Shown piece by piece: positions 4,463 through 40,391 of a stretch of 64,000 bases of DNA (position 1 is the first letter of the stretch; the number at the start of each line of letters is the position of its first letter). The notes under the pieces are model-generated. The model did not search any database. It had not been told where the DNA came from and worked only from the letters and a program-made list of their open reading frames with translations. Made by a program: the position numbers and the translations under genes. This DNA comes from an uncultured Gammaproteobacteria bacterium (lineage in GTDB: Bacteria > Patescibacteriota > Microgenomatia > CAZETR01 > Amesbacteraceae), in NCBI GenBank assembly GCA_964518565.1, contig CAZFGX010000001.1, forward strand, positions 669,404 to 733,403, given 5' to 3'.

Positions 4463-4479
4463 ACTGCTAAAATAAACAT

Positions 4480-5103
4480 ATGCAAGACGAAAATCCAAAT
4501 AAATCTATCAACGAACGAGGTCTTGGTGGCAAAGCCATCCCTGGCCATATCGTCGTCAACAGTGACGTCGCACTCACCGAAAAAGCCAAATGGTACGTCG
4601 TCCACACCTACTCTGGCCACGAAGCTCGTGTCGCCGAAACTCTTCGCCAACGTCTCGCCACCCTTGGCCAGACCGACAAGGTCGCCGAACTCCTCATCCC
4701 TACTCAAGATCAAATTCATATCAAATCTGGTAAAAAATACTCCGTCAAAGAAAAGATTTTCCCAGGATATCTACTGATCAAAATGATCGTCGATGACGAA
4801 TCCTGGCTGGTCGTTCGTACCACCCAAGGTATTACTGGCTTCGTCGGCGTAGGCAACAAGCCTACCCCACTCTCAGTCAAAGAAGTCGAAGCCATCATGC
4901 AATTTGCTCAGATCGGTGCACCAAAGCACAAGACCAACTTCACCACTGGCGAAGCCGTCAAAATTACCGATGGTCCATTTGCCGATTTCCTGGGCTCCAT
5001 CGAATCTATCGACGAAGCTCACGGCAAACTCCGCGTCCTGGTCTCTATCTTCGGCCGGGAAACGCCAGTCGAACTCGACTTTTTACAAGTAAAGAAGATA
5101 TAA
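4480..5103 (+). CDS. nusG: transcription antiterminator NusG (with N-terminal extension)
   Basis: NGN-domain sequence WYVVHTYSGHE and a KOW region. Canonical secE-nusG-rplK context. Confidence 0.9.
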   Translation: MQDENPNKSINERGLGGKAIPGHIVVNSDVALTEKAKWYVVHTYSGHEARVAETLRQRLATLGQTDKVAELLIPTQDQIHIKSGKKYSVKEKIFPGYLLIKMIVDDESWLVVRTTQGITGFVGVGNKPTPLSVKEVEAIMQFAQIGAPKHKTNFTTGEAVKITDGPFADFLGSIESIDEAHGKLRVLVSIFGRETPVELDFLQVKKI

Positions 5104-5115
5104 TCCCTACACTAT

Positions 5116-5541
5116 ATGGCAGCCAAAAAAATTAAAGTCATTTTAAAGCTCAATCTCCCAGCTGGTGGCGCAACTCCTGCACCACCTGTCGGTCCAGCTC
5201 TCGGTCAGCACGGTATTCCCATCATGGAATTCGTCAAACAATACAATGACCGCACCAAAGACCAAAAAGGTGACATTATCCCTGCTGTTATCACCGTCTA
5301 CGAAGATCGCAGCTTTACCTTTATCACCAAACTTCCCCCAGTCTCAGCCATGATCAAAAAGGCCTTAAACCTTGAATCTGCTTCCAAAAAACCCGGCCGT
5401 GAATCAGCCGGCAATATCACCAAAGATCAAATCCGCGAAATCGCCCAACGCAAACTCGTAGATCTCAATACTGACAATATCGAATCCGCCGTCAACTCCG
5501 TCGCCGGCACCGCCCGCTCCATGGGTATCAAAGTGATCTAA
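5116..5541 (+). CDS. rplK: 50S ribosomal protein L11
   Basis: [20 protein letters not shown] is the L11 hallmark. Confidence 0.95.
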
Positions 5542-6095
5542 TGGACATTTACCTGCTTAGCAAAAACTCCGGCAAGATCGCAGCCGCCAACTCTGTCTTC
5601 AACCAATACCACATCACGGTAAAAAGTATTTCCGAGGAATTCCCTGAAATTCAAGCCAATTCTAGTGCAGAGATCGCCAAATTTACCGTTCTAGAAGCGG
5701 TCCAAAAACTCCAGCTCCCCGTCATTCGTGAAGATCATAGTTTGTATATTCATGCCCTCGGTATCCCCGGGCCATATACGGCATTTATAGAAAAGACTCT
5801 GCCAGCAACCAAGCTCCTAGAAATCCTCGCCCTGCATCCAGATCGTACTGGCCATTTCGAAATCTCCGCCGCCTATGCCGATCCATCTGGCACACTCAAA
5901 GAATATTCCTATACAGTTCCCATCCATTTCAAAATCCAAGAAGTAGTCCCAGACCCTCGTGGAGGTTGGAGTGGACTCATGTGTCTAGAAGGCGAAACAC
6001 GAGCATTTACTGAATATCCAGAAGAAGACCGCCTATCTGTCTGGAACAAAAACTATATAGAAATAGCTAAATACCTCACTCAGGCTCAAGTATAG
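5541..6095 (+). CDS. Ham1/RdgB-family non-canonical purine NTP pyrophosphatase-like protein
   Basis: NSGKI...EDHSLYIHALGIPGPYTAF parallels Ham1 ATGNPGK...DDSGL.VDAL.G.PG.YSAR. A C-terminal EEDRLSVWNKN region resembles the EEKN..SHRG segment. Confidence 0.65.
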   Translation: MDIYLLSKNSGKIAAANSVFNQYHITVKSISEEFPEIQANSSAEIAKFTVLEAVQKLQLPVIREDHSLYIHALGIPGPYTAFIEKTLPATKLLEILALHPDRTGHFEISAAYADPSGTLKEYSYTVPIHFKIQEVVPDPRGGWSGLMCLEGETRAFTEYPEEDRLSVWNKNYIEIAKYLTQAQV

Positions 6096-6125
6096 TATAA
6101 TTAGCCTCCAGTCGAGGCTAAACAC

Positions 6126-6154
6126 TTGACAAATACAATACTATAGGATATAAT
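6126..6154 (+). promoter_or_regulatory. consensus sigma70 promoter TTGACA-17-TATAAT
   Basis: TTGACA at 6126-6131 and TATAAT at 6149-6154 with an exact 17-nt spacer. It lies upstream of a 176-nt structured leader before the gene at 6331. Confidence 0.5.
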
Positions 6155-6330
6155 CCTATTTAGGATAAGTTAGTGAGATCCAACATCTCGTTGACCATCT
6201 CACTCCTTGTTCAGCTCTTTAAAAATCGAGCGTGGACAAAATACTTCTGGACTCTCTTCCAGCGGCCATCTACGGCTGCTTAACAAATAATCTAAACAAT
6301 ATTCAAGTTCGTTTTTCAGGAGGTTAAGTT

Positions 6331-7029
6331 ATGCAAGCTAAGAAACAATCTAATCCATTCGCTATTGTTTTCATTGCCCTGCCAGTAGTAGTGGTAGTAG
6401 CACTGATAGTGTTCGGCATGTCCGACTCACCTTCTATCAGCCTCTCCACTGGAAACATTGCAGACGCAGCGCCAGAAAAAATCAATGTTTCATCGGTCAG
6501 CATGGACATGCCATCTATCGACGAACAATCACTAGAAGCTATCGTCCAAGTAGTAGAACCCGATGGTACATTGACGCTGCCTGCTGCAGATCCCGAAGGA
6601 TTTCAGCATGCCATGGAACGCCGTGGCATTTCAGCTGCTGGCTGTCCAGCCAAAACGAAGTATGCAGAACAGGCCGTGAATCAAGGGTATTTCATGATTA
6701 TGTCATGCTATGACCATGTTCGTGATAATCCCGAAGGCGCCTTTTTCTCACCCACCGCTGGAACAATCATGGTAATTGCCAACGCACCCCAACCTGTTGG
6801 GGCAATCGTTGTCATTTTCCAAGCAAACGTCCAGGGTGGAAATCTAATCGGCTTCGGCCGACCGTTAACCGTCTTAGTCAAAGGTGTAAATGTACACCGA
6901 GCTCGACTTTCTTCTTGTGCTAGCACACAGTTCTTTCCGCTAACCCAAGTGAAATTCCAGCCGGAATACGAACCACCCCCACTAGGCGGAGGCACCTGCC
7001 TCAAAAATAATAACGTCCATTCGTTTTAG
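6331..7029 (+). CDS. membrane-anchored hypothetical protein
   Basis: AGGAGG SD. N-terminal TM helix IVFIALPVVVVVALIVFG, followed by an extracytoplasmic domain. Confidence 0.6.
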   Translation: MQAKKQSNPFAIVFIALPVVVVVALIVFGMSDSPSISLSTGNIADAAPEKINVSSVSMDMPSIDEQSLEAIVQVVEPDGTLTLPAADPEGFQHAMERRGISAAGCPAKTKYAEQAVNQGYFMIMSCYDHVRDNPEGAFFSPTAGTIMVIANAPQPVGAIVVIFQANVQGGNLIGFGRPLTVLVKGVNVHRARLSSCASTQFFPLTQVKFQPEYEPPPLGGGTCLKNNNVHSF

Positions 7030-7044
7030 TAGCCACGCTCGTAG

Positions 7045-7082
7045 CCACCAGCCGACTCTTAGTTGGCTGGTGGTCTTTTTTG
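7045..7082 (+). terminator. rho-independent terminator
   Basis: Perfect 9-bp stem CCACCAGCC/GGCTGGTGG with an 11-nt loop, followed by TCTTTTTTG. Confidence 0.6.
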
Positions 7083-7119
7083 AAAAATTTCAATTATTTA
7101 CCAAAATATCGTATAATTT

Positions 7120-7677
7120 ATGGAGAACAAAATTGACATGATACCAAAATCTGAAGTTACAGCTATGCGCTCTGACGCTCCGAAGGCAGTACAACCAACA
7201 GAACTGGATCAACAAAACGAATTACTTAGAGATATTGATATGCGAAAAATTGCAGAAGCAACCACAAACACGTCTATTACCCAAGAAATGGTTCAAAAAC
7301 TGGTCGATTCAGAACCAGGGAGTTTGCGTAACCATTTATTTGGAATTAATGGCCAAAATCGAATGCGAAACCTCTGGCAAATATTGCAAATGAGCCTCTT
7401 GAGCGATGAAGATAAACAAAAAATGGTCGCGGGTGTAATAACTCAAATTGGGCTAGCCACTAAAGAAGCCTTAGACGAAAATGGATCAACAAAAGTTTTT
7501 AAACACGACATTACCCCAAGTGAATTACAAGTTCTAAAAACAGAAATGAATCCAGTTGTGATGAGTGAAGCCATGGAAATTCTAGACCATCCTGAAAAAA
7601 TTGAATCAACCGAAATCACTCCTGCACACATTGCAGCCATTGCAATGTTAAAAATAAACTCCACTACGAAAGAGTAA
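7120..7677 (+). CDS. hypothetical protein (alternative start 7138)
   Basis: 185-aa ORF of unknown function. TATAAT at 7112-7117 suggests the in-frame ATG at 7138 may be the true start. Confidence 0.55.
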   Translation: MENKIDMIPKSEVTAMRSDAPKAVQPTELDQQNELLRDIDMRKIAEATTNTSITQEMVQKLVDSEPGSLRNHLFGINGQNRMRNLWQILQMSLLSDEDKQKMVAGVITQIGLATKEALDENGSTKVFKHDITPSELQVLKTEMNPVVMSEAMEILDHPEKIESTEITPAHIAAIAMLKINSTTKE

Positions 7678-8023
7678 CATTCTCATAGTGGTTGATTCGT
7701 AACACGTCACCTTCTCTACCAAGCACAATCGCCACCATATCTATCCGGCAGGCCACTTCATCTCCTTTCAAATACACCTGTGCCATCCGTTTGACCTTGG
7801 TATATTTCCCTTTAGTAAACATCTCCTCAGGCCTTCCGTACCCTTCACCAATTTTTGTCTTCACTTCCACAAAAACCAATATTTTTTTATCCAGAAATAT
7901 CAGATCTATTTCCCCAAAACGAGTAGAAAAATTCCTCTGCACCAGTTCATAACCTTTTTTCATTAAATATTGCTCAGCTATCCCCTCACCCACTTGTCCA
8001 GTCGCTCGATTTTGCTGCTTCAT
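7664..8023 (-). CDS. yraN: YraN-family (UPF0102) endonuclease-like protein
   Basis: GEGIAEQYL...GYELVQRN...GEIDLIF......VFVEVKTK matches the UPF0102 pattern. The track ORF extends to 8071. Confidence 0.7.
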   Translation of the reverse strand: MKQQNRATGQVGEGIAEQYLMKKGYELVQRNFSTRFGEIDLIFLDKKILVFVEVKTKIGEGYGRPEEMFTKGKYTKVKRMAQVYLKGDEVACRIDMVAIVLGREGDVLRINHYENVTLS

Positions 8024-8052
8024 ACCGTATTGTACGAGTATAATCCCCCACA

Positions 8053-8772
8053 ATGGAACGCAATAGACCAATAAATCTGGATCACTATGTCGACGTCCTC
8101 GATGGCTGGCGATACAACAACGATTTTTTCTTAGCGCCTGAAGATATAAATCAGGCCGAAACCTATCTCCAAAATCAATATTCTCGTCTAGACACCCACA
8201 TGCTCAAAGAAGTGGCCAGTCGCACAATATTAGATCAGGACAGTCGACTGAAACCCCAAATTGTCCTAGCCCGTCAATTCTTACGTCAATTTTTTGGTGA
8301 TCTACCAGAACTGCAACCACTCACAAAATCCGGCGGCGGCATCGTTTTATACGGATCGCTGCAATATAACGATCCCAGAAACTTCGATGCAGATATTTTA
8401 ATCGTAAATCCAGGCCAAAAAGCTATTCGGGACTTTTCCTCACCACAATATCTGCAAATCGAACGCGAATTTATCTCCAAGTGGAGTCGCTACGGCAGCG
8501 AACCCCATATCGACGAACTCATGCTCAAATCTGCCCCATCCCAACTCGCCAGCCTACAAAAAACCGAAGGCGGCTGGTTCAACAATCTATCAATTCACAT
8601 TACCAAAGTGGTCACTGGACTTCCTCTCTGGCCAATTCCTACCAAATGGCATAACAATTGTTTCACTCAGGCCAAACAGATCTTAGAATCACACCCGCTC
8701 GCAGCTGCTCTAGCCAATGTCAGCATAGCCGAGACGCTCGATATCCGTCGCCAGCGCCAAAAACAAATCTAA
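8053..8772 (+). CDS. nucleotidyltransferase-fold (Pol-beta superfamily) domain protein
   Basis: GGGIVLYGSLQYNDPRNFDADILIV gives a hG[GS]-x9-DxD signature. Its partner and function are unknown. Confidence 0.55.
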   Translation: MERNRPINLDHYVDVLDGWRYNNDFFLAPEDINQAETYLQNQYSRLDTHMLKEVASRTILDQDSRLKPQIVLARQFLRQFFGDLPELQPLTKSGGGIVLYGSLQYNDPRNFDADILIVNPGQKAIRDFSSPQYLQIEREFISKWSRYGSEPHIDELMLKSAPSQLASLQKTEGGWFNNLSIHITKVVTGLPLWPIPTKWHNNCFTQAKQILESHPLAAALANVSIAETLDIRRQRQKQI

Positions 8773-10286
8773 ATCATTTGCCGATACTGCAACGCTTCAG
8801 CCAAATGACGAGCCAGTATCTGCTCAGAATCAGCCAAATCAGCAATAGTTCTCGCTACTTTAATAATCCGAAAATAGCTTCTAGCTGACAAATCAAATCG
8901 TTCTACCGCCAATCTCATCACCCCTTCCCCTTCAGGATCCAGCTTACAATATCGTTTTACCTGTTTATTTTTCATTTGCGAATTTGTATACATTCCATCA
9001 GATTCGAGCCTATGTTGCTGGATATTTCTACATTGGACAACCTGTTTTCTGATCTGTCCAGAATTAATCTGCTCCACTCCAGCCGCACCAGTCAGCTTCT
9101 CCACCTCCACCACACTTACATTAATATGCAAATCAATCCGGTCCAGTATTGGACCAGACAATCGGGCTCTATACTTAGCAATTTGCTTAGGAGAACAAAT
9201 GCACGCTCGCTTAGGATGCCCTAAATAGCCACACGGGCATGGATTCACAGCTGCCAAAAGCGTAAAACTAGCCGGATAACTCACATGAGCCGTAGCTCGG
9301 ACTATGCCTACAACCCCATCTTCCATTGGTTGCCTCAATGATTCCAAGACCGATCTGCCAAATTCTGGCATCTCATCCAAAAATAATACTCCCAAGTGAG
9401 CCAAGCTTACCTCACCAGGCATAGGATTGGATCCACCACCTATCATGCCTGCCGCGGATACTCCATGATGTGGACTACGATATGGCCGTCTTCGCACCAC
9501 AGATTCTCCCGGCTGCAGCAATCCAGATACTGAATATATTCGTGTTACCTCTAATGCTTCAGAGACTGAAAGTGGAGGCAAAATTCCCGGCATCGCTCGT
9601 GCCAACATCGTCTTTCCTGTACCCGGCGGCCCCCACAACAGCAAGTTGTGCCCACCTGCTGCCGCAATAGTCAGTGCCCGTTTGGCTTGTTCCTGACCAA
9701 TCACCTCTGCCAAATCAAATTCTATATGTGCATCTTCCACTAGCTCTTCTACTGCCAGACTTCGTAGCTGTTCCACAGATTTCACACCATTCAAATGATC
9801 TACCAGCTCCCCTAATTGTCGTATAGGATATACCGCGACACCTTTTACAATCGTTGCCTCATTCGCAGATTCAATGGGCACAAAAATAGCTCTCGACTTG
9901 GCAAACAAAGCTACCAACAGCACTCCCTTGGTAGCTCGGACTCCACCGTCTAAGCCTAATTCACCATAAAATATTCTCTCCTCAATACTCGCCACCGGTA
10001 TCTGGCCACTAGCTGCCAAGATGCCCACCGCTATCGCCAAATCATAAGCTCCGCCGTCCTTGGGCAAATCAGCGGGTGCTAGGTTCACAGTAATTTTCTT
10101 TGGTGGAAAGTCTAGACCAGAATTCCCGATCGCCGTCTTCACTCGCTCTCGAGCTTCTTCTACTGCCTTACCTGCCAATCCCACAATAGTAAATCCTGGA
10201 AATCCTTGATCTGCCACATCTACCTCCACCACAACCCCCACACTCTCCAGTCCCACATGTGCCACACTGTGGACTTTTACCAACAT
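8769..10286 (-). CDS. comM: Mg-chelatase-like AAA+ ATPase ComM/YifB
   Basis: N-terminal Lon-like domain, Walker A GPPGTGKT, Walker B LFLDE, and a C-terminal YifB-type region. Confidence 0.9.
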   Translation of the reverse strand: MLVKVHSVAHVGLESVGVVVEVDVADQGFPGFTIVGLAGKAVEEARERVKTAIGNSGLDFPPKKITVNLAPADLPKDGGAYDLAIAVGILAASGQIPVASIEERIFYGELGLDGGVRATKGVLLVALFAKSRAIFVPIESANEATIVKGVAVYPIRQLGELVDHLNGVKSVEQLRSLAVEELVEDAHIEFDLAEVIGQEQAKRALTIAAAGGHNLLLWGPPGTGKTMLARAMPGILPPLSVSEALEVTRIYSVSGLLQPGESVVRRRPYRSPHHGVSAAGMIGGGSNPMPGEVSLAHLGVLFLDEMPEFGRSVLESLRQPMEDGVVGIVRATAHVSYPASFTLLAAVNPCPCGYLGHPKRACICSPKQIAKYRARLSGPILDRIDLHINVSVVEVEKLTGAAGVEQINSGQIRKQVVQCRNIQQHRLESDGMYTNSQMKNKQVKRYCKLDPEGEGVMRLAVERFDLSARSYFRIIKVARTIADLADSEQILARHLAEALQYRQMI

Positions 10287-10310
10287 AATTTATGCTAACA
10301 CAACACACCT

Positions 10311-11102
10311 CTAAATCACCCAATACTTTCCGTCTCGTTCTTCAATTTGTCCCAACAATTGTAACTGCATCAATTCATAACTTAGTACATCAATTGGCTT
10401 TTCAACTAATCGACACAATTCATCAATTGTTAATGGTTCATTTTGTAACAAACTATATAAATCAGTAGATTTAATGTATCGATATTTTTTCATTTGCGGC
10501 ATCCAAAGTTTTGCCTGTCCGGTCGCAATCAAAGAATTGGTTCCCAAAGAAACAGCACTAGTAATCGGACCCGGCACAGCCCAAATTTCCTTGCCCATTT
10601 TTTTGGCAATTTCTACTGTTCCCAATGACCCAGATTTGACCCCTGCTTCGATGACATATACTCGCTGACAAAGTGCTGCCACAATTCGGTTGCGCAAAGG
10701 AAAAGTCCACAGTGCTCCTTTCTGTTTTTTCCACTCCGAAAAGATCAGTCCATCGGCTGCCAAAATAGCTCTTCCCAAATCATCGATTTGTTCATCAATT
10801 CCCCACCCCAAAACTGCAATAGTTTTTCCGCCCACGGTCAGACAAATCTCATGTGCGGTTCGATCCACTCCGTACATAAATCCGGACACAATTGTCCACC
10901 CGTCAGCGACCAACTGTGGCACCAAAATTTCCACCGCTCGTCTGCCGTATTGGGTCATCTGCCTGCTGCCAATAACTGCAGCCATTCGGGGTGGCATTTC
11001 ACCTTGCCAATTACCCAAATACCATAGCTCTTTCACAATCGGTTTCACATCTGCCAACCACCTCTCCAACACCCCCTGATCTAGTTGCCCAGCAGTTAGC
11101 AT
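10311..11102 (-). CDS. dprA: DNA processing protein DprA/Smf
   Basis: AVIGSRQMTQYGRR ... SGFMYGVDRTAH ... LGWGID is the DprA Rossmann core, with a C-terminal winged-helix tail. Confidence 0.9.
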   Translation of the reverse strand: MLTAGQLDQGVLERWLADVKPIVKELWYLGNWQGEMPPRMAAVIGSRQMTQYGRRAVEILVPQLVADGWTIVSGFMYGVDRTAHEICLTVGGKTIAVLGWGIDEQIDDLGRAILAADGLIFSEWKKQKGALWTFPLRNRIVAALCQRVYVIEAGVKSGSLGTVEIAKKMGKEIWAVPGPITSAVSLGTNSLIATGQAKLWMPQMKKYRYIKSTDLYSLLQNEPLTIDELCRLVEKPIDVLSYELMQLQLLGQIEERDGKYWVI

Positions 11103-11165
11103 ATATCAATATTAATTATATTGACTTTCTATGTGAAGTATGGGCACAATAGATACATAGTTAGA

Positions 11166-11220
11166 ACTTGTAAAAACTGGTAAAAACAGCTTCAAAAAAT
11201 TGTAAAAAGTTGTCAAAACC
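11166..11220 (+). repeat. phased array of T(T)GTAAAAA / TTGTCAAAA motifs upstream of the HTH-TM-Cache gene
   Basis: Copies start at 11168, 11178, 11200 and 11210 (about 10-11 bp phasing). The same motif, reverse-complemented, forms a longer array at 38097-38170. Confidence 0.6.
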
Positions 11221-11234
11221 AGCCCTGCCAAAAA

Positions 11235-13070
11235 ATGCCCAAAACATTCACCGTCAAAGAAGTCGCTGATGCCTTGGGTTTTTCGACCAATACCGTCTAC
11301 AAATACCTAGACGAAGGCAAGATAAAAGCTACCCGTTTAGGGTCAGAAGGTCGCTTCAAAATCCCAGCTTCTGAAGTAGAAAGATTACTAGGAAAACCCA
11401 AGACGGTTCAGGTCATAAATCAACCCGTCCAAACAGTCACAGTCGTAGAAGAAACTGCCGAAAGTTTGATCCGCGAAAAGCCCGCCTCATCCCCAGAACT
11501 TTTTGATTGGCTCCTCTCCCTAACTGCAGTGTTTACAGGCATCTCCCAACTGACCAGTCCAATCAAAAATTTTGCCCTAGCTTCAGATCAATTTCGCACT
11601 CTGTTTTCTATCGCAAATATTGACCTAATTTTGGCAGGTGGATCACTGTTTGCCCTGGACATGTTTTCCCCAAAAAAAACTCGCATATTTTCACTGATCG
11701 CACGCATTCCTCTTGCTGCCACTTTTGGCTATTTAAGCTACCTCCATTTCGTCACCAAAGACATGTGGCAAGCCAGTTATTTTTTTGTACTCAGTCTATT
11801 TACGTTTGCGTCATGTGTATGGCCGGAAAAACACTTTGAAACAAAGTGTTCTCTATTCATGTTTTCTCTTATTAGCATCACGGCAATCGCCTATAGTCGC
11901 AACCCTCAACCGTTTATTTTTTCCGACCCACGCTATGAAATTTCCAACAACCCCAATGGCTTTGTTATGGGAGTGCTTGCCGTCAGCGCCATCATCACCG
12001 CCATTCTGATTTTTGCCAAAAATCGCAGTCGAGTCCTATACCCCATCTTTACTACTTTGACCGGTTGCATCTTTTTGGTTTTGACCATCAGCTATATCGC
12101 TACTGGCGACTTAGCCAAAACCATTATTTGTTTATTCACTGGCTGCTTTGCCCTGATACTTCCACTCACCAACCAAATCGAGTCTTTCTCTCACTATACC
12201 AAACGCCAACTTGCAATTGGATTCATTTGGATCGTTGCTGCCATCGCTCTGGGAGTTGTCGGGGTTCAAGTCACCAAGGCTACCACTGGTTCTCTCGCTA
12301 TCAAAAATGCAAAAGACAAAACCGACTCTACAGCCAAAGTAGCCGACCGCAGTATCTCTGATGCTTCACTGAATGTGATTCGTGCTGCCTCAGATGACCG
12401 ACTCGATTCTCTTCCTATATCCGAAGCCTCTGAAACGACCCTACTGGAAATGTCCAAAAGTATCTATTTCACATCTTCACTTACTCGTCGAGTCTTTTTT
12501 GCCGACCAAGATGGGAACACGTTTGGTGTTTATCCCCCAATCAACTCCAATATCCGTTCAGTAGCTACGCGTGACTTCTTCCAACAAACCAAATCAACTC
12601 GCAAAACCGTAGTCTCAGATGTAATCCAACCCCAAGTAGCCCTTCCAGCCACCGTTTATATCTCCACTCCAATCATTTCTGAAGCCAATGAATTTCGCGG
12701 CACGATCACCATAGCTATTGATCCACAACTACTTCAGGATCGATTGACACTCATGACTCAAGCCGAAAACAGTCGGATTCTCATCACAGATGTCAAAGGT
12801 GATTATTTATTTGGCCAAGAGGTTCTCTCAAAAGAATCAGCCAAAAATCAAAACTCAATTGTATTCGATAATTCAAAAAATCTAGCCGTGCAAACCAAGT
12901 CAAAAGCCGAAGCTCTAGGCTGGAATATTACTCTAGTTCAACCATATGACGAGGTATTCAAAGAATCCACAGCCATCTCATCTTTCATCTTTTTTGTGAG
13001 CGCAGTCCTTGGTATTGGCGCTCTGCTTATAAACACCCACTTACCTCACACACAAAAAGACCATGAATAA
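11235..13070 (+). CDS. membrane protein with an N-terminal excisionase/MerR-type HTH, about nine TM helices, a Cache-like extracytoplasmic domain and a final TM helix
   Basis: FTVKEVADALGFSTNTVYKYLDEGKIKATRLGSEGRFKIPASEVERLL is an HTH_17-like domain. Multiple hydrophobic helices follow. FFADQDGNTFGVYPP...RDFF...VVSDVIQP...TVYISTPII...GTITIAIDPQLL is a Cache-like region. The stop overlaps the giant gene start by 8 nt. Confidence 0.75.
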   Translation: MPKTFTVKEVADALGFSTNTVYKYLDEGKIKATRLGSEGRFKIPASEVERLLGKPKTVQVINQPVQTVTVVEETAESLIREKPASSPELFDWLLSLTAVFTGISQLTSPIKNFALASDQFRTLFSIANIDLILAGGSLFALDMFSPKKTRIFSLIARIPLAATFGYLSYLHFVTKDMWQASYFFVLSLFTFASCVWPEKHFETKCSLFMFSLISITAIAYSRNPQPFIFSDPRYEISNNPNGFVMGVLAVSAIITAILIFAKNRSRVLYPIFTTLTGCIFLVLTISYIATGDLAKTIICLFTGCFALILPLTNQIESFSHYTKRQLAIGFIWIVAAIALGVVGVQVTKATTGSLAIKNAKDKTDSTAKVADRSISDASLNVIRAASDDRLDSLPISEASETTLLEMSKSIYFTSSLTRRVFFADQDGNTFGVYPPINSNIRSVATRDFFQQTKSTRKTVVSDVIQPQVALPATVYISTPIISEANEFRGTITIAIDPQLLQDRLTLMTQAENSRILITDVKGDYLFGQEVLSKESAKNQNSIVFDNSKNLAVQTKSKAEALGWNITLVQPYDEVFKESTAISSFIFFVSAVLGIGALLINTHLPHTQKDHE

Positions 13071-32864: not shown

Positions 32865-33531
32865 ATACTAATCTAAAAATCTTTTCAAACAAATCATCAC
32901 TTTTAGCCATCATGCACAATACGTAGGGTCTCTTCGGTCGGTAGACCAAACGGCAATCTCCAACGTTATTTTTTGATTTGAATCGAAACATGGAAACATC
33001 TGCTTCAGACACGTGTTGAACATGAGATTTTAAAATTTTATTTGAATTTTCCAAATCTAAATAAGTAGATAAATACAAATTTCTCAAAACAGATGAAAAA
33101 TTCTTAGGACTCACGACCAAATCAGAATCGTTTTGACTCTGAGGAAAATCTAAATAATCAAAAATAGGCTGATGAGAATTAAGGCTTTCTAATTCATTCA
33201 AAAGCGGAATCTGAGTCGTAGCAAACATGGGCACCTTTTCGTTTACCCCCACATAGACACCTGAGGGTAAATATTCAAAATATATACCCATGGCAGTATT
33301 CGCCACAATTTGCTCCAGTTGAGTTCGTAAGGAGACAAAGTTTATAAGAACATCATTTGGCTGGTTTATAAATACTCTCGGTGATAAAAACCGATAGGAT
33401 AAAACACTTGCAGATTGGAGCGATGAAGCCTGAACGGGATTATAGACGCGACGAAATATGATAACAAATAAAACAATATTTGTGACACATGATGCACAGA
33501 AAAAAACCCAAAATGAATGTTTTTTTGTCAT
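32842..33531 (-). CDS. degenerate paralog of the class A beta-lactamase-fold proteins (lacks SxxK and SDN)
   Basis: Shares the YFEYLPSGV..G.NE, SPKN.SSVLR.LY.S.YLD and RPYVLCMM blocks with its two neighbours, but the catalytic motifs are missing. Confidence 0.55.
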   Translation of the reverse strand: MTKKHSFWVFFCASCVTNIVLFVIIFRRVYNPVQASSLQSASVLSYRFLSPRVFINQPNDVLINFVSLRTQLEQIVANTAMGIYFEYLPSGVYVGVNEKVPMFATTQIPLLNELESLNSHQPIFDYLDFPQSQNDSDLVVSPKNFSSVLRNLYLSTYLDLENSNKILKSHVQHVSEADVSMFRFKSKNNVGDCRLVYRPKRPYVLCMMAKSDDLFEKIFRLVYEYVDAY

Positions 33532-34469
33532 GGAGTAGGTAATTTTGACACATAGTCATATACAATAGTAGAAATCCCCTTCATAGTAACATCAGCTTCT
33601 GCCTCTGAAGAATTAATCATCATACACAACAAATACGGTCTTTGAGGTAAATAAAAAATTCCGCAGTCAGTAAATACATCACTTACTCCTGGCTTTCCCT
33701 TTCGTACACCTATTTTGTGAGCAACAGTCAAATCTTTTGGCACCCCAGCTACAATCATGTCGGAAAACTCACTACGACTAAGCAAATCCAGAACTGAATT
33801 GGAATTTGTTGGATTTATAAAAGACGAAAAATATAAGCTTCGCAAAATTGAAGAATAATTCTTAGGGGAAATCGTTGGCTCTTCACCAAAATCTTTAGGA
33901 ATTCCCAAATAATCATAAACATCCACTATTTGTTGCTGAGATACAAGTTTGAACAACAAATTTCTGGCAGTATTATCAGATTCTGCCAAAATTTTTTCCA
34001 AAGCGACAGACACGGTTAGTCGAGTACCTACCCCTTGTTTATACAACTCACCAAAATTCGGGTCTATGTCTTGTTCGGCTATTTCGATTTGATCCCCCGT
34101 ACCAATCCTTCCACTTTCGACTTGTTTCAAAACCGCCATGGCTAAAGGAATTTTCAACAACGACGCTTGAATAAATTCTTGATTTTCATGAATGCCAATA
34201 GACGTCCCACTGGGCAAATATTCAAAATACAATCCAACATTATCCTTTGTAGCCAGTATCTCGTTGAGAGCGGAACGTAAAACCACAAAATTAGTTAACA
34301 AGTGATATTGATGTCCTGCAAAAACACGCCGTGAGATATAAGGATACTGCTGGCTTAAATCTGAAGCCTGAGACACACCACTTTCCAAAGCTTTGGGTGA
34401 AAAATTAATTAAAAACGCCGCTAAAACAATATTTATACCAACAGAAACACAAAACAAAACATATTTCAT
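33528..34469 (-). CDS. class A beta-lactamase-fold serine hydrolase-like protein with signal anchor
   Basis: ASLLK (SxxK), ESDNTARNLL (SDN motif, close to the TEM sequence SDNTAANLL), an EEP...SP omega-loop-like segment, and HKIGV in the KTG position. Confidence 0.7.
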   Translation of the reverse strand: MKYVLFCVSVGINIVLAAFLINFSPKALESGVSQASDLSQQYPYISRRVFAGHQYHLLTNFVVLRSALNEILATKDNVGLYFEYLPSGTSIGIHENQEFIQASLLKIPLAMAVLKQVESGRIGTGDQIEIAEQDIDPNFGELYKQGVGTRLTVSVALEKILAESDNTARNLLFKLVSQQQIVDVYDYLGIPKDFGEEPTISPKNYSSILRSLYFSSFINPTNSNSVLDLLSRSEFSDMIVAGVPKDLTVAHKIGVRKGKPGVSDVFTDCGIFYLPQRPYLLCMMINSSEAEADVTMKGISTIVYDYVSKLPTP

Positions 34470-34471
34470 AA

Positions 34472-35401
34472 TTAGTAATCCCTAATATATGAATATACAT
34501 CCTGAGAAATACTCTTAAACACGGATCGAGCCACATCTTCACTAGACTTCATCATCAAACATAAAATGTATGGCCGCTTCGGCATATATACTATTCCACA
34601 ATCTGTATATACCGAATCTGGAGTATCAGGTGAATAAACACCAATTTTATGAGCCACTTTTACCTGTTCAGGTACACCAGCTCGCAATTTATCGGTAAAT
34701 TTACTTTGAGTCATTAAATCCAATATCTCATTTGAATCAGCCATATCTAAATAAGAAGATAGATACAAGCTTCTAAGTACCGAAGAATAATTTTTAGGTG
34801 TCACCACTACAGTATTTTGTTCTAATTCCTTAGGAATATCCAATGAATCAAACACATCTTCAATCGTTCCTGCAGGCAATCTATTAAACAACACACTTTT
34901 TGCCGTATTGTCAGACTCGGTAAGCACCAAACGAACCGCATCATTTACTGAAATTTTCGCCCCCACCCCCTGTTTCCAAAAATCCCCAAAATTATTATCT
35001 ATATTCTCAGGTTGTATGGTTAATATTTCATTCATATCCAGAGCATGGTTCTCTTTCTGTTTATATACACCCATAACCATAGGGACTTTCAAAAGCGACG
35101 CCAATACAAACTGTTTTTTTTCATTAATCCCTATAGATACACCCGAAGGCAAATATTCAAAATACACACCAAGTTCACCTGAAACAGTCGAGGAATTAAT
35201 TACTTCTCGTAATTCTGACCGCAATTTCACAAAATTTATAAGTATTTCATTCTTCTCACTCGCCATTATCCTCGGAGACAAAAATTGAAATTCCTGCTTA
35301 TCATAAACATGCAAATGACGAAATGGCCTACGGAGCAAAAAGTAGCCATTGATGATAAGGCTAACAATCAAAAACCCTAGCAAAAGCATCCTGCTTCGCA
35401 T
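34472..35401 (-). CDS. class A beta-lactamase-fold serine hydrolase-like protein with signal anchor (paralog)
   Basis: ASLLKVPMV (SxxK), ESDNTAKSVL (SDN) and HKIGV. Start taken at MRSRM (35401). The track ORF extends to 35428. Confidence 0.7.
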   Translation of the reverse strand: MRSRMLLLGFLIVSLIINGYFLLRRPFRHLHVYDKQEFQFLSPRIMASEKNEILINFVKLRSELREVINSSTVSGELGVYFEYLPSGVSIGINEKKQFVLASLLKVPMVMGVYKQKENHALDMNEILTIQPENIDNNFGDFWKQGVGAKISVNDAVRLVLTESDNTAKSVLFNRLPAGTIEDVFDSLDIPKELEQNTVVVTPKNYSSVLRSLYLSSYLDMADSNEILDLMTQSKFTDKLRAGVPEQVKVAHKIGVYSPDTPDSVYTDCGIVYMPKRPYILCLMMKSSEDVARSVFKSISQDVYSYIRDY

Positions 35402-35426
35402 GAATATATGCAGTATACTCCAACCC

Positions 35427-36350
35427 ATGCCAAAAAAAATTGTCCTTACTGGTAGTTCAGGTTTTTTAGGCCAGCACCTTTTCTCAAGCCTGAAAAGAGT
35501 CTACCCAAAAAGCATTATCAGTACTCCCAGTTCAAAAGATGCAGATCTAAGAATTCTTGAAAATTGTCTAAAAATTACTACTAAAGCGGATTTAGTAATC
35601 CACGCAGCAGCTAATGTTGGAGGTATTGGTAAAAATCAACAACTTCCCGGTACCTTGCTTTACGACAACGCCATCATGGGTCTGTATATGATCGAAGCAG
35701 CTAAATTAAATAAGGTGTCTAAAACAATAGTTATAGGTACGGTATGTGAATACCCCAAATATACCGACATTCCGTTCAAAGAATCAGATATATGGCTCGG
35801 ATATCCTGAATCAACCAACGCGCCCTACGGACTAGCCAAAAAACTTCTCCTTGTTCAAGGTCAAGCATATCATCAAGAATTTGGCATAAATATCATCCAC
35901 ATCCTACCCACAAATTTATATGGACCACACGACCACATAGACGCACAATATGCTCATGTAATCCCCGACCTAATTCGCAAATTTCATACCGCAAAGAACA
36001 CAAAACAACCCACTGTCACACTCTGGGGCGACGGCTCAGCCACCAGAGAATTCATGTATGTAGCAGATGCGGCTGATGCAATTGTACTAATTAGCAAAAA
36101 ATACGATTCCCAAGATCCAATAAACATTGGCTCAGGCGAAGAAATCTCTATTAAGGACCTAGCCGAACTAATAAAAAATAAAATAGGGTATACGGGTGAA
36201 ATAATTTGGGACACCAGCCGTCCAAACGGCCAACCTCGTCGGCTAATTGATCATTCTAAACTTGCGAGTCTGAAATTTAAACCCAAAACAAATATTTCCA
36301 CTGGACTAGATAAAACAATTAATTGGTATATCAAAAGCATTCAAACATGA
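35427..36350 (+). CDS. NAD(P)-dependent epimerase/reductase, GDP-L-fucose synthase (Fcl/WcaG)-like
   Basis: Rossmann start KKIVLTGSSGFLG, then AAANVGGI, GTVCEYPK, and NAPYGLAKK (YxxxK). The track's start at 35349 is a TTG. ATG 35427 fits the family's N-terminus. Confidence 0.75.
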   Translation: MPKKIVLTGSSGFLGQHLFSSLKRVYPKSIISTPSSKDADLRILENCLKITTKADLVIHAAANVGGIGKNQQLPGTLLYDNAIMGLYMIEAAKLNKVSKTIVIGTVCEYPKYTDIPFKESDIWLGYPESTNAPYGLAKKLLLVQGQAYHQEFGINIIHILPTNLYGPHDHIDAQYAHVIPDLIRKFHTAKNTKQPTVTLWGDGSATREFMYVADAADAIVLISKKYDSQDPINIGSGEEISIKDLAELIKNKIGYTGEIIWDTSRPNGQPRRLIDHSKLASLKFKPKTNISTGLDKTINWYIKSIQT

Positions 36351-37537
36351 ACAATCTGCAACGTTTCTATCTCAATCAGCATTCAAACTTAATCAACCAT
36401 CTAGTACCAGTTGGTGCCCATTCCAACTATCGAGTACTAAATGACAATATTGGCGAACAAACAGATATTTTAAAAACTCTAGAAAAAGCCCGAAGTGAAT
36501 TGTCTGCCAATGGTCGGATAGTCTTCACATCTATTAATTTCCTATGGCAACCCATAGTTACCCTAGCTGAGTACCTAAAAATCAAAAGGCCACAACCGCA
36601 ACAAAGCTGGCTATCACATACCGACATAAAAAATTTACTCTATCTTGCAAATTTTGAAGTTGTCACATCAGGCACCCACCTCCTATTGCCTATCTATATC
36701 CCTTATTTCAGTTCATTTATAAACCAATATATAGCTCGTCTTCCTATTATTAAACACCTTTGCCTTATTCAGTATTTCGTCGCCAAAAAAATACCCCAGA
36801 CAAACCCAGACAAAGACTATAGTGTATCTATTATCGTCCCAGCCAGAAACGAATCAGGAACTATAGAGACCATTATCAAAAACCTACCTTATCTAGGCAC
36901 CCATACAGAAATTATTTTTGTCGAAGGTCATTCAAAAGATGGTACCAACACAACTATTCGCCAAGCAATTACAAAATTCAAACATAAAGATATAAAACTA
37001 ATTACTCAAACCACTACATCTGGCAAAGGCGATGCCGTTAGAAAAGGTTTTAATCGAGCCACTGGTGACATACTTGTGATATTTGACGCAGATCTATCCA
37101 TGTCCGCAAATGAATTACCCATTTTTTACCACGTGCTTAGAACCCACAAAGCAGACTTTGTCATGGGTTCGAGACTTATTTACCCCATGGAAAACCAAGC
37201 CATGAGGTTTCTAAACATTTTAGGCAATAAAGCATTTAGTCTCATTTTTTCTTGGATTTTAAATCTACCAGTAAAAGATACGCTCTGTGGCACAAAGTGT
37301 TTATTTAAAAAGGACTATCAGTTAATAGCTAAAAATAGAGCATATTTTGGCGACTTTGATCCCTTCGGCGATTTTGACCTCATTCTTGGCGCCTCAAAAG
37401 CAAATCTAAAAATTATCGAAGTTCCTATTCATTACAAAGCAAGAGTCTATGGCAAAACCAACATTAGTCGTTTCCGCCACGGTTGGTTACTAGTACAAAT
37501 GACTTTATTTGCCGCCAAAAAGCTCAAATTCTTTTAA
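36347..37537 (+). CDS. GT2 glycosyltransferase, DPM1/GtrB-like polyprenyl-phosphate sugar synthase with N-terminal extension
   Basis: ATGA overlap with the upstream gene. VSIIVPARNESGTIETII, FVEGHSKDGT and GKGDAVRKGFNRATGDILVIFDADLS are GT2 signatures. Confidence 0.75.
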   Translation: MNNLQRFYLNQHSNLINHLVPVGAHSNYRVLNDNIGEQTDILKTLEKARSELSANGRIVFTSINFLWQPIVTLAEYLKIKRPQPQQSWLSHTDIKNLLYLANFEVVTSGTHLLLPIYIPYFSSFINQYIARLPIIKHLCLIQYFVAKKIPQTNPDKDYSVSIIVPARNESGTIETIIKNLPYLGTHTEIIFVEGHSKDGTNTTIRQAITKFKHKDIKLITQTTTSGKGDAVRKGFNRATGDILVIFDADLSMSANELPIFYHVLRTHKADFVMGSRLIYPMENQAMRFLNILGNKAFSLIFSWILNLPVKDTLCGTKCLFKKDYQLIAKNRAYFGDFDPFGDFDLILGASKANLKIIEVPIHYKARVYGKTNISRFRHGWLLVQMTLFAAKKLKFF

Positions 37538-38117
37538 AAACCAGCCTGGTAATAGGAAACCAGGTCGGATTTTTCTCCACCAAAGCTAACCCCACACTCC
37601 TGGCTTGATTCACAATCTTGGGCATATCCACTCTTTGATGAGGACCTTCAGGCATTTTCCAGCCCATTTTTTCCCAGACTATCAGTAACGGCTCCCAAAA
37701 CGGACCCACAAATGTCACTATCAGCCGACCATCAGCTTCTAAATGCGATTTAATCCAATCCAAGTCCCCTCTCAGATCCATTGTGTGCTCTACAACATCT
37801 GCCATAATCACTGTATTAAATTTGTCTTTTATCTCTGATTTTTTAGCCGTAAATCTGAAGTTTGGGAATTTTCTTGCCGCAAGTTTTACCATTTCACTAC
37901 TAATATCAAAACCTGTTCCCATTATCGGGTCTAAATAAGCCAATATCTGGCCAGTTCCGCATCCATAATCTAATACGTTTTTTTTATTACCAGCTTTTGA
38001 ACGAATTATCCTTTTAAGTACACTATAATAAATGCCATTTTTTCGCTTAAAACTGTCATACAAATGTGCGATTTCATCAAAATGTTGTTCTACGTCGTTT
38101 TTACAAGTTTTTACCAT
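37524..38117 (-). CDS. class I SAM-dependent methyltransferase
   Basis: VLDYGCGTGQILAYL (motif I) and ADVVEH (post-I acidic region). Confidence 0.8.
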   Translation of the reverse strand: MVKTCKNDVEQHFDEIAHLYDSFKRKNGIYYSVLKRIIRSKAGNKKNVLDYGCGTGQILAYLDPIMGTGFDISSEMVKLAARKFPNFRFTAKKSEIKDKFNTVIMADVVEHTMDLRGDLDWIKSHLEADGRLIVTFVGPFWEPLLIVWEKMGWKMPEGPHQRVDMPKIVNQARSVGLALVEKNPTWFPITRLVFKRI

Positions 38118-38170
38118 ATTTTAGCCTTGTTTTTACAAGTTTTTACAACTTATTACAAGTGTTTACAATC
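38097..38170. repeat. phased array (6-7 copies, about 10.5 bp period) of TTTTTACAAG, the reverse complement of CTTGTAAAAA
   Basis: Copies start at 38098, 38108, 38130, 38140, 38151 and 38162. The array overlaps the methyltransferase start codon and matches the array at 11166-11220. Confidence 0.65.
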
Positions 38171-38218
38171 AATAAAATGCTTGCAATTTAGATAAAAATA
38201 GTGCTAAGGTAATTTTAG

Positions 38219-38962
38219 ATGGCATTTATTACCAAAAAGAAACTCCTTATTGGCACGGTTGTCTTACCATTTATCGCCGGAATTGCTGGCGGCGGTTATT
38301 ATTTCTACAAACAATATAGCACTACCAAGTCCCAACTAGAGCAACTCAAGTCTCAAGCTCCAAACAATGCTTCAGCTGAGGAAAACCAAAAAACCGTCTC
38401 CCAAGTAGCCAAGCTCATGGACCTCCCATCAGATCAGCCAACAGTAGCAACCATCACAGACAAAGAAAAGCTTAAAGATCAGCCATTTTTTAGCCGTGCA
38501 GACAACGGTGACAAGGTTTTAATATTCGCCGCCTCTAAAAAAGCCATTATCTATAGACCTAGTACAAACAAAATTGTAGATATTGCCCCAATCAATATCT
38601 CAAATGCCACACCCTCTGGTCAAACCGCTCAGCCGACTGGAAAAGTAGCCGGAGCCACGGCCTCCACACCCACGACTAAACCCCTGAGCGTACTACTGGT
38701 AAATGGTACAGATTCTTCTGGCTTGACCAACAAATTCGAAGCCTCTGTCAAAAAAGTAATTACCGGAGCCACTGTCACCAAGGAACAAGGCCAAAAACAA
38801 GATCATGACAAATCAGTCATTGTCGTCTCAAAAGATGAATTTAAAGACGCCGCCGACAAACTCAGCAAAGAGTTAGGTATATCTCTGGGAGATTCCCCCT
38901 ATGGCGAAGATCTAGCCGGCAAAGCTGACATCGTAGTTCTATTCGGCACAGATAAAAAATAA
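38219..38962 (+). CDS. membrane-anchored LytR_C-domain protein
   Basis: N-terminal TM helix. C-terminal VLLVNGTDSSGLTNKFEASV...DIVVLFGTD resembles the LytR C-terminal (cell envelope-related) domain. Confidence 0.6.
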   Translation: MAFITKKKLLIGTVVLPFIAGIAGGGYYFYKQYSTTKSQLEQLKSQAPNNASAEENQKTVSQVAKLMDLPSDQPTVATITDKEKLKDQPFFSRADNGDKVLIFAASKKAIIYRPSTNKIVDIAPINISNATPSGQTAQPTGKVAGATASTPTTKPLSVLLVNGTDSSGLTNKFEASVKKVITGATVTKEQGQKQDHDKSVIVVSKDEFKDAADKLSKELGISLGDSPYGEDLAGKADIVVLFGTDKK

Positions 38963-39017
38963 ACCAAAACAAAGGCAATTCACTTTTTAAATCGAATCTT
39001 GTATAATCCTCCAAGCC

Positions 39018-39806
39018 ATGGGTAAAAAACGCGCTGCAGTTCTTGGATCAGACCAAGAAGAATCATTAAAAGCTGAAAAAGCCGTCAAACGCGAGCAAAA
39101 AAAATTGCGTGAAGGCCAAACAGTAAAAAAATCTTCTGAAAAAGAAGCTGCTCCTGTCATGGAACAAACAGCCCCTGAAGTAGAAACCAAATCCACTTCT
39201 CCCAAAAAAGACCATCATCGCTCTAAAGCCTATCAAACAGCAAAATCCGCAATTGACAGTAATAAAGTATATTCAATCGATGCTGGACTTACTCTGCTTC
39301 GCAAAGTTTCACTTACCAAATTTGATTCCACCGTCGAGCTTCACATTGTTCTCAAAAAAGCCCCAGAAGCCAAACTCTCAGTAAATCTTCCTCACAACAC
39401 CAAAGCTGGCAAAAAAGTTTCCCTCGTTACCGATGAACTCCTAGCCAAGCTCGAATCTGGCAATACCAATCTTGATCTAGACTTTATCGTCGCCACTCCA
39501 GCTCAAATGGGCAAACTCGTCAAATTTGCCAAAGTCTTAGGTCCAAAAGGTCTAATGCCAAATCCAAAAACCGGAACCGTCAGCGAAAAGCCAGAAGAAG
39601 CAGCCAAAAAACTCGCCGCAGACACCTCCATGGCTTTAAAAATCGACAAATCCGCCCCAGTAATCCACACAACAGTCGGCAAACTCTCACTCAAAGACGA
39701 TCAACTCCAAGAAAATATCCAAGCAATTCTCACTCTTTTACCCGGAAATCTGAAAAAAATCGTACTCAAATCAACTATGTCCCCAGCCATCAAGTTGCAA
39801 GCCTAA
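39018..39806 (+). CDS. rplA: 50S ribosomal protein L1 with lysine/glutamate-rich N-terminal extension
   Basis: KVYSIDAGLTLLRKVSLTKFDSTVELHIVLKK and the downstream L1 core. Immediately precedes rplJ. Confidence 0.9.
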   Translation: MGKKRAAVLGSDQEESLKAEKAVKREQKKLREGQTVKKSSEKEAAPVMEQTAPEVETKSTSPKKDHHRSKAYQTAKSAIDSNKVYSIDAGLTLLRKVSLTKFDSTVELHIVLKKAPEAKLSVNLPHNTKAGKKVSLVTDELLAKLESGNTNLDLDFIVATPAQMGKLVKFAKVLGPKGLMPNPKTGTVSEKPEEAAKKLAADTSMALKIDKSAPVIHTTVGKLSLKDDQLQENIQAILTLLPGNLKKIVLKSTMSPAIKLQA

Positions 39807-39823
39807 GCTTCTCTTGATACAAT
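39795..39823 (+). promoter_or_regulatory. candidate promoter for rplJ-rplL (TTGCAA-17-TACAAT), overlapping the rplA stop
   Basis: TTGCAA at 39795-39800 and TACAAT at 39818-39823 with a 17-nt spacer. Confidence 0.4.
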
Positions 39824-39878
39824 ACGTATCGTTAACCAAAGACAGCGTGCACACAAATAAGCCACGCCGAGGCAAAAT

Positions 39879-40391
39879 ATGGCTCCCAAAAAACTATCCA
39901 CCAAAAAAACAGATTCATTAGCCAAAATTAAAGATTTACTTCAAAAATCTAAATCTGTTGCTGTCGTCGACTACACTGGTCTAAAAGTCTCCCAAGCTAC
40001 TGAACTTCGAAAAACTATTCGCCAAGCAGGTGGTGAATATTTAGTTACCAAAAATACCCTCTTCAAGATTGCTACGGGAAACGACGAAGTCAATGTCACT
40101 GGTCTTTCAGGCTATGTCTTTTCTACTAAAGATGAAGTCTCAGCTATCAAATCCGTCGCAGAATTTTCAAAGAAAAACAACGTTTTAGCCTTCAAGGGTG
40201 GCATGCTTGGAGAAAAAATCCTGTCAGCCGAAGAGGTTTCCCAACTAGCTTCCCTACCAGACAAGCCAACCATGGTCGCCAAAATGCTGGGCAGTGTCAA
40301 AGCGCCTCTATTCAATCTAACCTACAACCTCAACTGGAATATTTCCAAATTAGTTCGCACGCTCGATGCAGTAGCCAAATCAAAATCTTAA
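39879..40391 (+). CDS. rplJ: 50S ribosomal protein L10
   Basis: L10 fold sequence. Sits upstream of L7/L12. Confidence 0.9.

Follow-up and report, generated by a model that had tools for sequence, protein, structure and literature searches.

In the DNA analyzed here, the conserved gene cluster secE-nusG-rplK-rplA-rplJ-rplL is split between rplK (L11) and rplA (uL1) by 33.5 kb. The stretch comprises 64,000 nt (positions 669,404 to 733,403 of contig CAZFGX010000001.1, assembly GCA_964518565.1) and is referred to as the window; all coordinates are those of the window. The closest matches of its L11 and L1 proteins are metagenome-assembled genomes (MAGs) of Candidatus Amesbacteria (Microgenomates/OP11, candidate phyla radiation (CPR)). 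The neighborhood of rplK and rplA is among the most stable adjacencies of bacteria and the classic example of translational coupling combined with autoregulation by L1. Taken as a whole, the observations are best explained by an old split common to the entire clade, a plastic gap and a separate, near-leaderless rplA-rplJ-rplL unit, and we consider this explanation likely.

According to Pfam matches and coordinates all six genes were present in canonical order on one strand. The stop codon of rplK and the ATG of rplA were 33,476 nt apart, which confirms the split reported in a preliminary description of the window. The space contained 18 open reading frames (ORFs), 10 of them on the opposite strand. 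Each half was still contiguous, secE-nusG-rplK at 4283–5541 and rplA-rplJ-rplL at 39018–40800. The left half is headed by secE (4283–4462, +; Pfam SecE, E 9.7e-18), followed by nusG (4480–5103, +; Pfam NusG plus KOW) and, after a spacer of 12 nt, by rplK (5116–5541, +; Pfam Ribosomal_L11_N and Ribosomal_L11), which closes its ribosomal part. The right half consists of rplA (39018–39806, +; Pfam Ribosomal_L1, 7e-24), rplJ (L10; 39879–40391, +; Pfam) and rplL (L7/L12; 40411–40800, +; Pfam). What the window lacks of the bacterial cluster is the canonical adjacency and coupling of rplK and rplA. The coupled slot usual for rplA is filled by a gene for a Ham1/RdgB-like NTP pyrophosphatase (5541–6095, +; Pfam Ham1p_like, 3e-13; NCBIfam PRK14821, 9e-24, below cutoff). 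This gene had rightly been described as following rplK directly. Its ATG overlaps the rplK stop (TAATG).

To place the split, 80 loci were obtained from species-representative genomes with L11 as query, 80 metagenome loci with L1 as query and a few by exact look-up, and the window proteins were mapped onto them by tblastn. Loci are numbered here with the prefix L. Exact-sequence look-ups of comM and L1 gave records, the exact L1 being located on an NCBI contig of 1,001,365 bp; those of the L11 and Ham1 proteins found nothing on record. Outside Amesbacteria, the distance between rplK and rplA was below 1 kb in 127 of 133 informative loci, and the adjacency was kept in the sister Microgenomates, namely Gottesman-, Roizman-, Woese- and Daviesbacteria. 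Within Amesbacteria, whose L11 proteins are 72–86% identical to that of the window, the cluster was split in 17 of 18 informative loci. The split goes far beyond what chance would give, yet it is a property of the clade rather than of the window genome. In the literature we found no description of this gene order in Amesbacteria or CPR. The position of the Ham1-like gene is lineage-specific; among the fetched loci a homolog was found in L006 only, located 1.5 kb after rplK (tblastn, E<=1e-5).

Across the relatives the size of the gap ranged from 0.27 to 36 kb and its cargo varied. The commonest state was a minimal one of 3.5–7.8 kb with yraN, comM and dprA on the minus strand, dprA being the direct neighbor of rplA. 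It was present in eight loci (L002, L004, L007, L008, L010, L012, L013 and L089), of which L002 additionally carried NUDIX and 23S_rRNA_IVP genes. Loci holding one end only had core genes beside rplK (L003, L011) or beside rplA (L090, L091); in the latter two, where rplK was not reached, dprA abuts rplA likewise. L003 and L082 are located on one contig of 264 kb, resulting in a gap of 36.4 kb with the same yraN-comM-dprA core. The cargo here comprised a histidine kinase (CHASE-PAS) paired with a response regulator, SH3 proteins, several consecutive Tat genes and a beta-helix protein. In the window the core is formed by yraN/UPF0102 (7664–8071, -), comM (8769–10286, -) and dprA (10311–11102, -), all assigned by Pfam, and an extra ORF without a domain lies between yraN and comM (8053–8772, +). 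The gap of L005 carried neither comM nor dprA, but an HD-domain gene and an ORF of 1204 aa instead. In L094, rplK and rplA were adjacent with a non-coding spacer of 271 nt. Such variation in size and cargo corresponds to the patchy presence that is characteristic of genomic islands, tempered by the fact that the cargo of the window is common to its nearest relatives.

The history of the gap was reconstructed on a neighbor-joining tree of nusG, L11 and L1 (536 columns from tblastn high-scoring segment pairs (HSPs), 300 bootstraps). Amesbacteria were monophyletic in 100% of the replicates and L005 and L094 were sisters in 100%, whereas L094 was basal to the rest in 0% and L005 and L094 together were basal in 1%. 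Most parsimoniously, Amesbacteria acquired yraN-comM-dprA a single time, at their base, L005/L094 lost it secondarily, and other cargo was added independently elsewhere. Linkage of rplL to mreB was also found in outgroups with adjacent rplK and rplA (L062, L070), which indicates that DNA was interposed and that rplA-rplJ-rplL did not move away. In the proposed course of events the universal cluster would have been broken between rplK and rplA in the ancestor of the clade, and the oppositely orientated block yraN-comM-dprA, with functions in DNA uptake and recombination, would have come to sit in the break. The gap would then have become a plastic zone, in which lineages added unrelated cargo on either side of the core. 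One sub-lineage probably lost the core, L094 returning to adjacency and its sister L005 holding other genes.

Alternatively, the junction could be a hot spot of independent, repeated insertions, where yraN-comM-dprA and the other cargo entered separately and L094 keeps the ancestral adjacency. The very different cargo of the lineages would fit, as would the adjacency in L094 next to a sister without comM and dprA, and the deeper nodes of the tree are only moderately supported (69%). However, lineages from across the clade share the three core genes in identical order and orientation, with dprA towards rplA, so that a single origin is far more parsimonious. The most divergent lineages (L010–L013, L11 72–73% identical) also hold the core, and a position of L005 and L094 as sister to the rest reaches a bootstrap of only 1%. 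Separate insertions are thus unlikely.

The window represents an expanded state, and the question is whether its extra DNA of about 28 kb is resident or inserted. This part starts with a gene for an HTH_17-dCache sensor/regulator (11235–13070, +; 611 aa; Pfam), which overlaps the start of a giant ORF of 5399 aa (13063–29262, +) with internal repeats of ~1761 nt and no known domain. It is followed by a minus-strand cell-envelope cluster (29222–35428, -) encoding a 552-aa protein of unknown function, a 674-aa TPR protein and three Beta-lactamase2-like paralogs (Pfam). Genes for an NAD-dependent epimerase (+), a GT2 glycosyltransferase (+) and a methyltransferase (-) are located at 35349–38117 (Pfam), and orf38219 (38219–38962, +), encoding a 247-aa protein of unknown function, lies directly upstream of rplA. 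The presence of comM-dprA and of an HTH/giant operon in the interval had been correctly described. The term glycosylation cluster for the remainder is only partly apt, since unknown proteins, the TPR protein and three Beta-lactamase2-like paralogs are present besides the epimerase, the GT2 glycosyltransferase and the methyltransferase.

Both ends of this DNA were found in relatives. On the right-hand side the closest relatives are L084 and L085 (L12 84–85%, MreB 88–90% identical), in which orf38219 and Beta-lactamase2-like genes are located directly upstream of rplA as well. L084 carried the complete run of TPR protein, three beta-lactamase-like genes, epimerase, GT2, methyltransferase, orf38219 and rplA (37–64% identity). 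In this run synteny holds at 44–61% identity for the four genes that begin with the TPR protein and end with bla2, and at 37–64% for epimerase-GT2-methyltransferase; a 538-aa gene, cut by the end of the locus, takes the place of the 552-aa gene. On the left-hand side, L086 showed comM-dprA (-) and HTH_17-dCache (+) overlapping the start of a giant gene (58–74% identity); its HTH_17-dCache homolog, likewise located after dprA, was 60% and the 5' end of the giant gene 58% identical. A more distant CPR locus, L087, contained an HTH_17-dCache gene, ORFs of 1636 and 1278 aa and an orf38219-like gene. There the module lies beside mreB, PEGA, ndk and M16, which is the neighborhood of the window, and it can therefore be regarded as old and local. 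The HTH_17-dCache family was found across CPR beside very large ORFs.

The composition of the interval was that of the host. Throughout the 64 kb the plus strand had a GC skew of -0.1 to -0.3 with a strong excess of C. The skew at third codon positions flipped with gene orientation in almost every gene inside the interval and outside, being weak only in the short orf7120 and orf32842, which points to a strand bias of the replication type. The GC content at third codon positions (GC3) of the cluster at 29–39 kb was 0.30–0.35, compared with 0.31 for argS and atpA, and matches ndk and the atp genes. None of the ORFs of the interval had a Pfam domain of an integrase, transposase or recombinase. 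A bordering tRNA was absent, the tRNAs of the window being located only at 44.3–44.5 kb, and k-mer and repeat searches found no direct repeats at the borders. Junctions kept at diverged identity on both sides, host-like composition and the missing signs of mobility together argue for an old resident and not for a recent island.

A recent horizontal insertion, by which an island or mobile element of 28–33 kb would have broken an intact cluster in the window genome, is therefore very unlikely. Similarly divergent Amesbacteria (L002, L004, L007, L008, L089 and others), in which dprA abuts rplA without the block, could be taken in its favor. However, as nearly all Amesbacteria are split without it, the block did not cause the split, and its junctions are kept in relatives at only 37–74% protein identity. 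The GC content varies between 0.36 and 0.51 inside the interval, but the same range was found outside, and third-position skew and GC3 agree with the host. The excisionase-type fold of HTH_17 would also speak for an insertion; integrase, transposase, bordering tRNA and direct repeat are lacking. The imperfect inverted repeats of 25 nt at 11153–11177 and 38129–38153 do not look like element ends: they consist of phased decamers, and the same arrays are found upstream of orf38219 homologs in other loci. The preliminary description had viewed the interval as an inserted or rearranged block and named synteny with relatives and the GC and codon-usage profile as checks. Both went against an insertion in the window genome: the split with yraN-comM-dprA is found across Amesbacteria and both ends of the 28 kb are syntenic (L086, L084), and composition is native. 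What stands of this view is a site that was rearranged or inserted into anciently and repeatedly, with varying cargo and one reversal. Returning to the old, clade-wide split, the 33.5 kb of the window would be one expanded state, with Ham1 and small ORFs after rplK and the HTH_17-dCache gene, the 5399-aa protein and the cell-envelope cluster between dprA and rplA. Rather than being a recent acquisition, it was probably inherited in common with the closest relatives sampled.

The window is also sound as an assembly. Positions 1–15218 and 29018–49806 were reproduced by independent short-read contigs from two runs with 99.99–100% identity. On these, rplK was followed by Ham1 and the genes up to dprA, and then by the HTH gene and the beginning of the giant gene; another independent contig extended from the 3' end of the giant gene through orf38219 upstream of rplA. 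Both flanks of the split are thus real and the split is no assembly artefact, whatever the true length of the giant gene. The short-read contigs end inside this gene, and its repeat-rich middle (~15.2–23.2 kb) was present in the 1.0-Mb source contig alone, which could be taken as a sign that the cluster halves were mis-joined through the repeats and that the spacing of 33.5 kb is unreal. However, the ORF stays open over 5399 codons, the similarity to the second giant gene does not exceed 76% identity over 299 nt and would not suffice for a mis-join, the strand skew is uniform, and dprA and rplA are neighbors in relatives, as expected if one locus separates them in the window. Such an assembly or binning artefact can practically be dismissed.

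The right half seems to be transcribed on its own. Upstream of rplA a sigma-70-like promoter was predicted (TTCACT-17-TATAAT, 38979–39007, +; 10 of 12 matches), reading TATAAT-CCTCCAAGCC-ATG towards the gene. Between the end of the -10 box and the ATG lie 10 nt (CCTCCAAGCC), with CCTCC and without a Shine-Dalgarno sequence, in line with the earlier observation of these elements. A TATAAT 7–10 nt before the rplA start was conserved in 10 of 16 Amesbacteria loci; in L094 a TAGAAT was located ~50 nt upstream. With its -10 element and the missing Shine-Dalgarno sequence rplA has the features of leaderless genes (-10 element ~6–12 nt before the start). The same pattern, TATAAT/TAnAAT 6–12 nt before the ATG without Shine-Dalgarno, was found at secE (TAGAAT, 7 nt before the ATG), orf8053, dprA and ndk, and nusG and argS fit by spacing alone. 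The internal genes rplJ, rplL, atpH and M16 have Shine-Dalgarno sites. In the window the motif TATAAT-N6-12-ATG occurred at 7 sites, 5 of which coincide with listed gene starts and a sixth with the start of a gene called in the independent contig L001. A conserved leaderless promoter of rplK was considered and rejected: in relatives rplK starts 1–5 nt after the nusG stop, and the TATAAT 11 nt before rplK of the window is therefore probably incidental.

Judged from these motifs, the two halves would be separate transcription units. The first, secE-nusG-rplK(-ham1), would be transcribed from the promoter at secE. The second, rplA-rplJ-rplL, would have its own sigma-70-type promoter and end at a hairpin after rplL, a predicted bidirectional terminator with 13 bp between an A-run and a T-run (40819–40847); its mRNA is predicted to be leaderless or nearly so. 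The suggestion of an independently transcribed, near-leaderless rplA is supported in this form by the promoter and its conserved layout. As separate units, L11 and L1 would no longer be coupled in their translation.

In E. coli, L1 represses the rplKA message via a leader that mimics rRNA, and rplA is translationally coupled to rplK (PMC3616713). The beginning of rplA is where the L1 site is found in Methanococcus and in other phyla (PMC3616713). Searching the whole window against Rfam at the gathering threshold revealed only two tRNAs and no ribosomal leader, and in the regions 38850–40450 and 4150–6350 only chance snoRNA-like matches were found otherwise at E up to 10. A leader binding L10(L12)4 was not detected before rplJ either (72-nt spacer, no match to Rfam L10_leader at E up to 10). 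RNAalifold of the region from -10 to +120 of rplA in 12 Amesbacteria loci gave 0 pairs and no consensus structure; an operator hidden in the coding region of the N-terminal extension of uL1 gained no support from this result. Before rplK (12-nt spacer) and rplA (10 nt) there would be no space for a leader RNA that binds L1, nor was a sign of one seen. Loss or replacement of the classical L1 feedback is plausible on these grounds.

The uL1 protein itself is divergent, scoring 123 bits against TIGR01169 of NCBIfam with a cutoff of 216. It carries a Lys/Glu-rich N-terminal extension of ~65 aa (39018–39215), the first residues of which, MGKK(R/K)xxxLGSExEE, are conserved across Amesbacteria. Microgenomatia are reported to be devoid of the 23S helix H78, a contact of the uL1 N-terminus (PMC12641178). 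A divergent, extended uL1 and the missing H78 would fit an altered L1 stalk, and the extension might compensate for the loss of H78.

Several points weigh against the explanation favored here. The phylogeny is a distance tree on 536 HSP columns and not a maximum-likelihood tree on many markers, and the node making L010/L012 basal reached a bootstrap of only 69%. As the tree is simple, distance-based and built from HSPs, the order of events is what we infer from it. Most relatives are fragmentary MAG contigs, and L084, L085 and L086 show one side of the gap each, so that sharing of the whole 28 kb is concluded from its two ends. Only one assembly covers the middle of the giant gene. In four or five Amesbacteria loci the -10 box of rplA lies 33–60 nt upstream, at one of them together with a GGGAGG Shine-Dalgarno sequence, and a leaderless rplA is thus not universal in the clade. 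The 7 TATAAT-N6-12-ATG sites are no enrichment over the 4.9 expected; only their coincidence with gene starts is informative, not their count. Finally, L1-binding RNAs are small and poorly conserved (PMC3616713) and whether Rfam contains a model for them was not checked, which makes their absence weak evidence.

A more far-reaching proposal would be that the rplK/rplA junction is a long-lived plasticity zone, where giant-surface-protein, cell-envelope, signalling and secretion modules were swapped repeatedly, with one clean reversal. Homologous recombination on the conserved flanking ribosomal-protein genes would be responsible, fuelled by the natural-transformation genes dprA and comM inside the zone. 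The break would have been tolerated via leaderless promoters of operon-leading genes and because the rRNA-mimic feedback of L1 had already been lost (23S without H78). We put this forward as a speculation that is unlikely to hold.

Two decamer arrays were found at the ends of the block. The first, (C/G)TTGTAAAAAC in 2+2 copies with a period of 10 nt (11168–11219, +), is located upstream of the HTH_17-dCache/giant operon and is a candidate operator. The second contains 2+4 copies of the same decamer (38097–38168, -) and lies where the methyltransferase gene and orf38219 diverge. The array recurs upstream of orf38219 homologs in L085 (9106–9157) and L087 (21177–21206), which makes it operator-like rather than an element end. 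The arrays may be the operator of the HTH_17-dCache regulator, and such an arrangement would join both ends of the block into one regulon.

The window contains a second giant ORF (54497–64000), which exceeds 3160 aa and leaves the window. It has a MerR/HTH_17 domain fused N-terminally; the first giant ORF is preceded by the separate HTH_17-dCache gene, not fused to it. Both HTH-bearing genes begin with CCAAAAA-ATG-CCC-AA. The ribosomal-protein genes and both giant genes are located on the C-rich strand, which normally is the lagging strand. The atp operon (atpF-H-A-G-D-C, 48445–54157, -) has no recognizable gene for an a- or c-subunit upstream; an ORF of 259 aa (53378–54157) without a family match shows, by eye, a c-subunit-like hydrophobic hairpin at its end. 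These features bear on the suggestion of the preliminary description that the second giant locus, too, borders a broken conserved operon.

After the Ham1-like gene the window carries two lineage-specific ORFs (6331–7029 and 7120–7677, both +), to which no function was assigned by domain search and for which no homologs were found in the loci of relatives. Upstream of orf6331 a perfect 12/12 consensus promoter (TTGACA-17-TATAAT, 6126–6154) leaves a leader of ~176 nt (within 6096–6330) without a match to an Rfam family. The gene has a strong AGGAGG Shine-Dalgarno sequence and a terminator hairpin of 14 bp at its 3' side (7044–7074). In total, ORFs 3033, 6331, 7120, 8053, 29222, 32842 and 53378 and the giant ORF gave no NCBIfam or Pfam match. 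Small proteins with effector-associated domain 7 (EAD7) are encoded just upstream of the secE cluster in the window (615–1076, -) and in L169 (14143–14604 and 15456–15692).

Other irregularities of the cluster were seen among the fetched loci. Outside Amesbacteria the rplK-rplA adjacency was missing in L036 and L061 (Saccharibacteria), in L041 and L043 (Paceibacteria) and in the metagenome contigs L101 and L102; the lineages of L041 and L043 may have lost uL1 altogether. Several genera of Microgenomates had 3–4 kb between nusG and rplK (L017, L019, L029, L033, L035). Between rplA and rplJ there were 2–6 kb in L023, L025, L026, L029, L034, L035, L056 and L070, and some Amesbacteria carried extra ORFs at this position (L084, L002, L005).

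A whole CPR lineage without the rplK-rplA adjacency shows that the coupling is dispensable, and offers a natural system for how the L11:L1 stoichiometry is held without it. The break is a clean, synapomorphy-like marker of Amesbacteria for binning and taxonomy. For annotators it is a caution not to take every big gap in a supposedly universal ribosomal cluster of a CPR genome for a misassembly or an island. The practical weight is modest, as the case belongs to comparative-genomic natural history and does not represent a new kind of system.

When compared to known systems, the window shares the six genes, their order and their orientation with the bacterial secE-nusG/rplKA/rplJL(-rpoBC) arrangement of E. 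coli and B. subtilis. Whereas rplK and rplA are adjacent and coupled in the L11 and L10 operons of these species, 33.5 kb separate them in the window, and neither an L1-binding leader (rplK, rplA) nor an L10 leader (rplJ) was detected. Of the features of genomic islands, integrase or transposase, tRNA and direct repeats are lacking in the interval, and its skew and GC3 are within the range of the host. In Cyanobacteria, Actinobacteria and Chloroflexi an L1-binding RNA is located directly before rplA (PMC3616713). The window resembles these phyla in that the 5' region of rplA itself, rather than the rplK leader, appears to be the center of rplA regulation and expression; in contrast to the window, they keep rplK and rplA adjacent with a structured element in between. 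Leaderless genes of Actinobacteria and Deinococcus-Thermus have a -10 box ~7 nt from a 5'-terminal AUG (PMC3160421, PMC6028130). The operon-leading genes of the window are similar to these in their close -10 box and missing Shine-Dalgarno sequence, but the 10-nt spacing of rplA predicts a leader of 2–4 nt and no true 5'-terminal AUG. In Methanococcus vannielii, rplA-rplJ-rplL forms a unit separate from rplK, with feedback through an RNA element that binds L1 at the beginning of the rplA message (PMC3616713). The rplA gene of the window, by contrast, has almost no predicted leader, and no conserved 5' structure was detected (~120 nt, 12 Amesbacteria). As in the L1 operon of M. vannielii, however, rplA heads a predicted rplA-rplJ-rplL unit apart from rplK, and since the sister Microgenomates keep the bacterial arrangement, this archaeal resemblance is convergent and not homologous.

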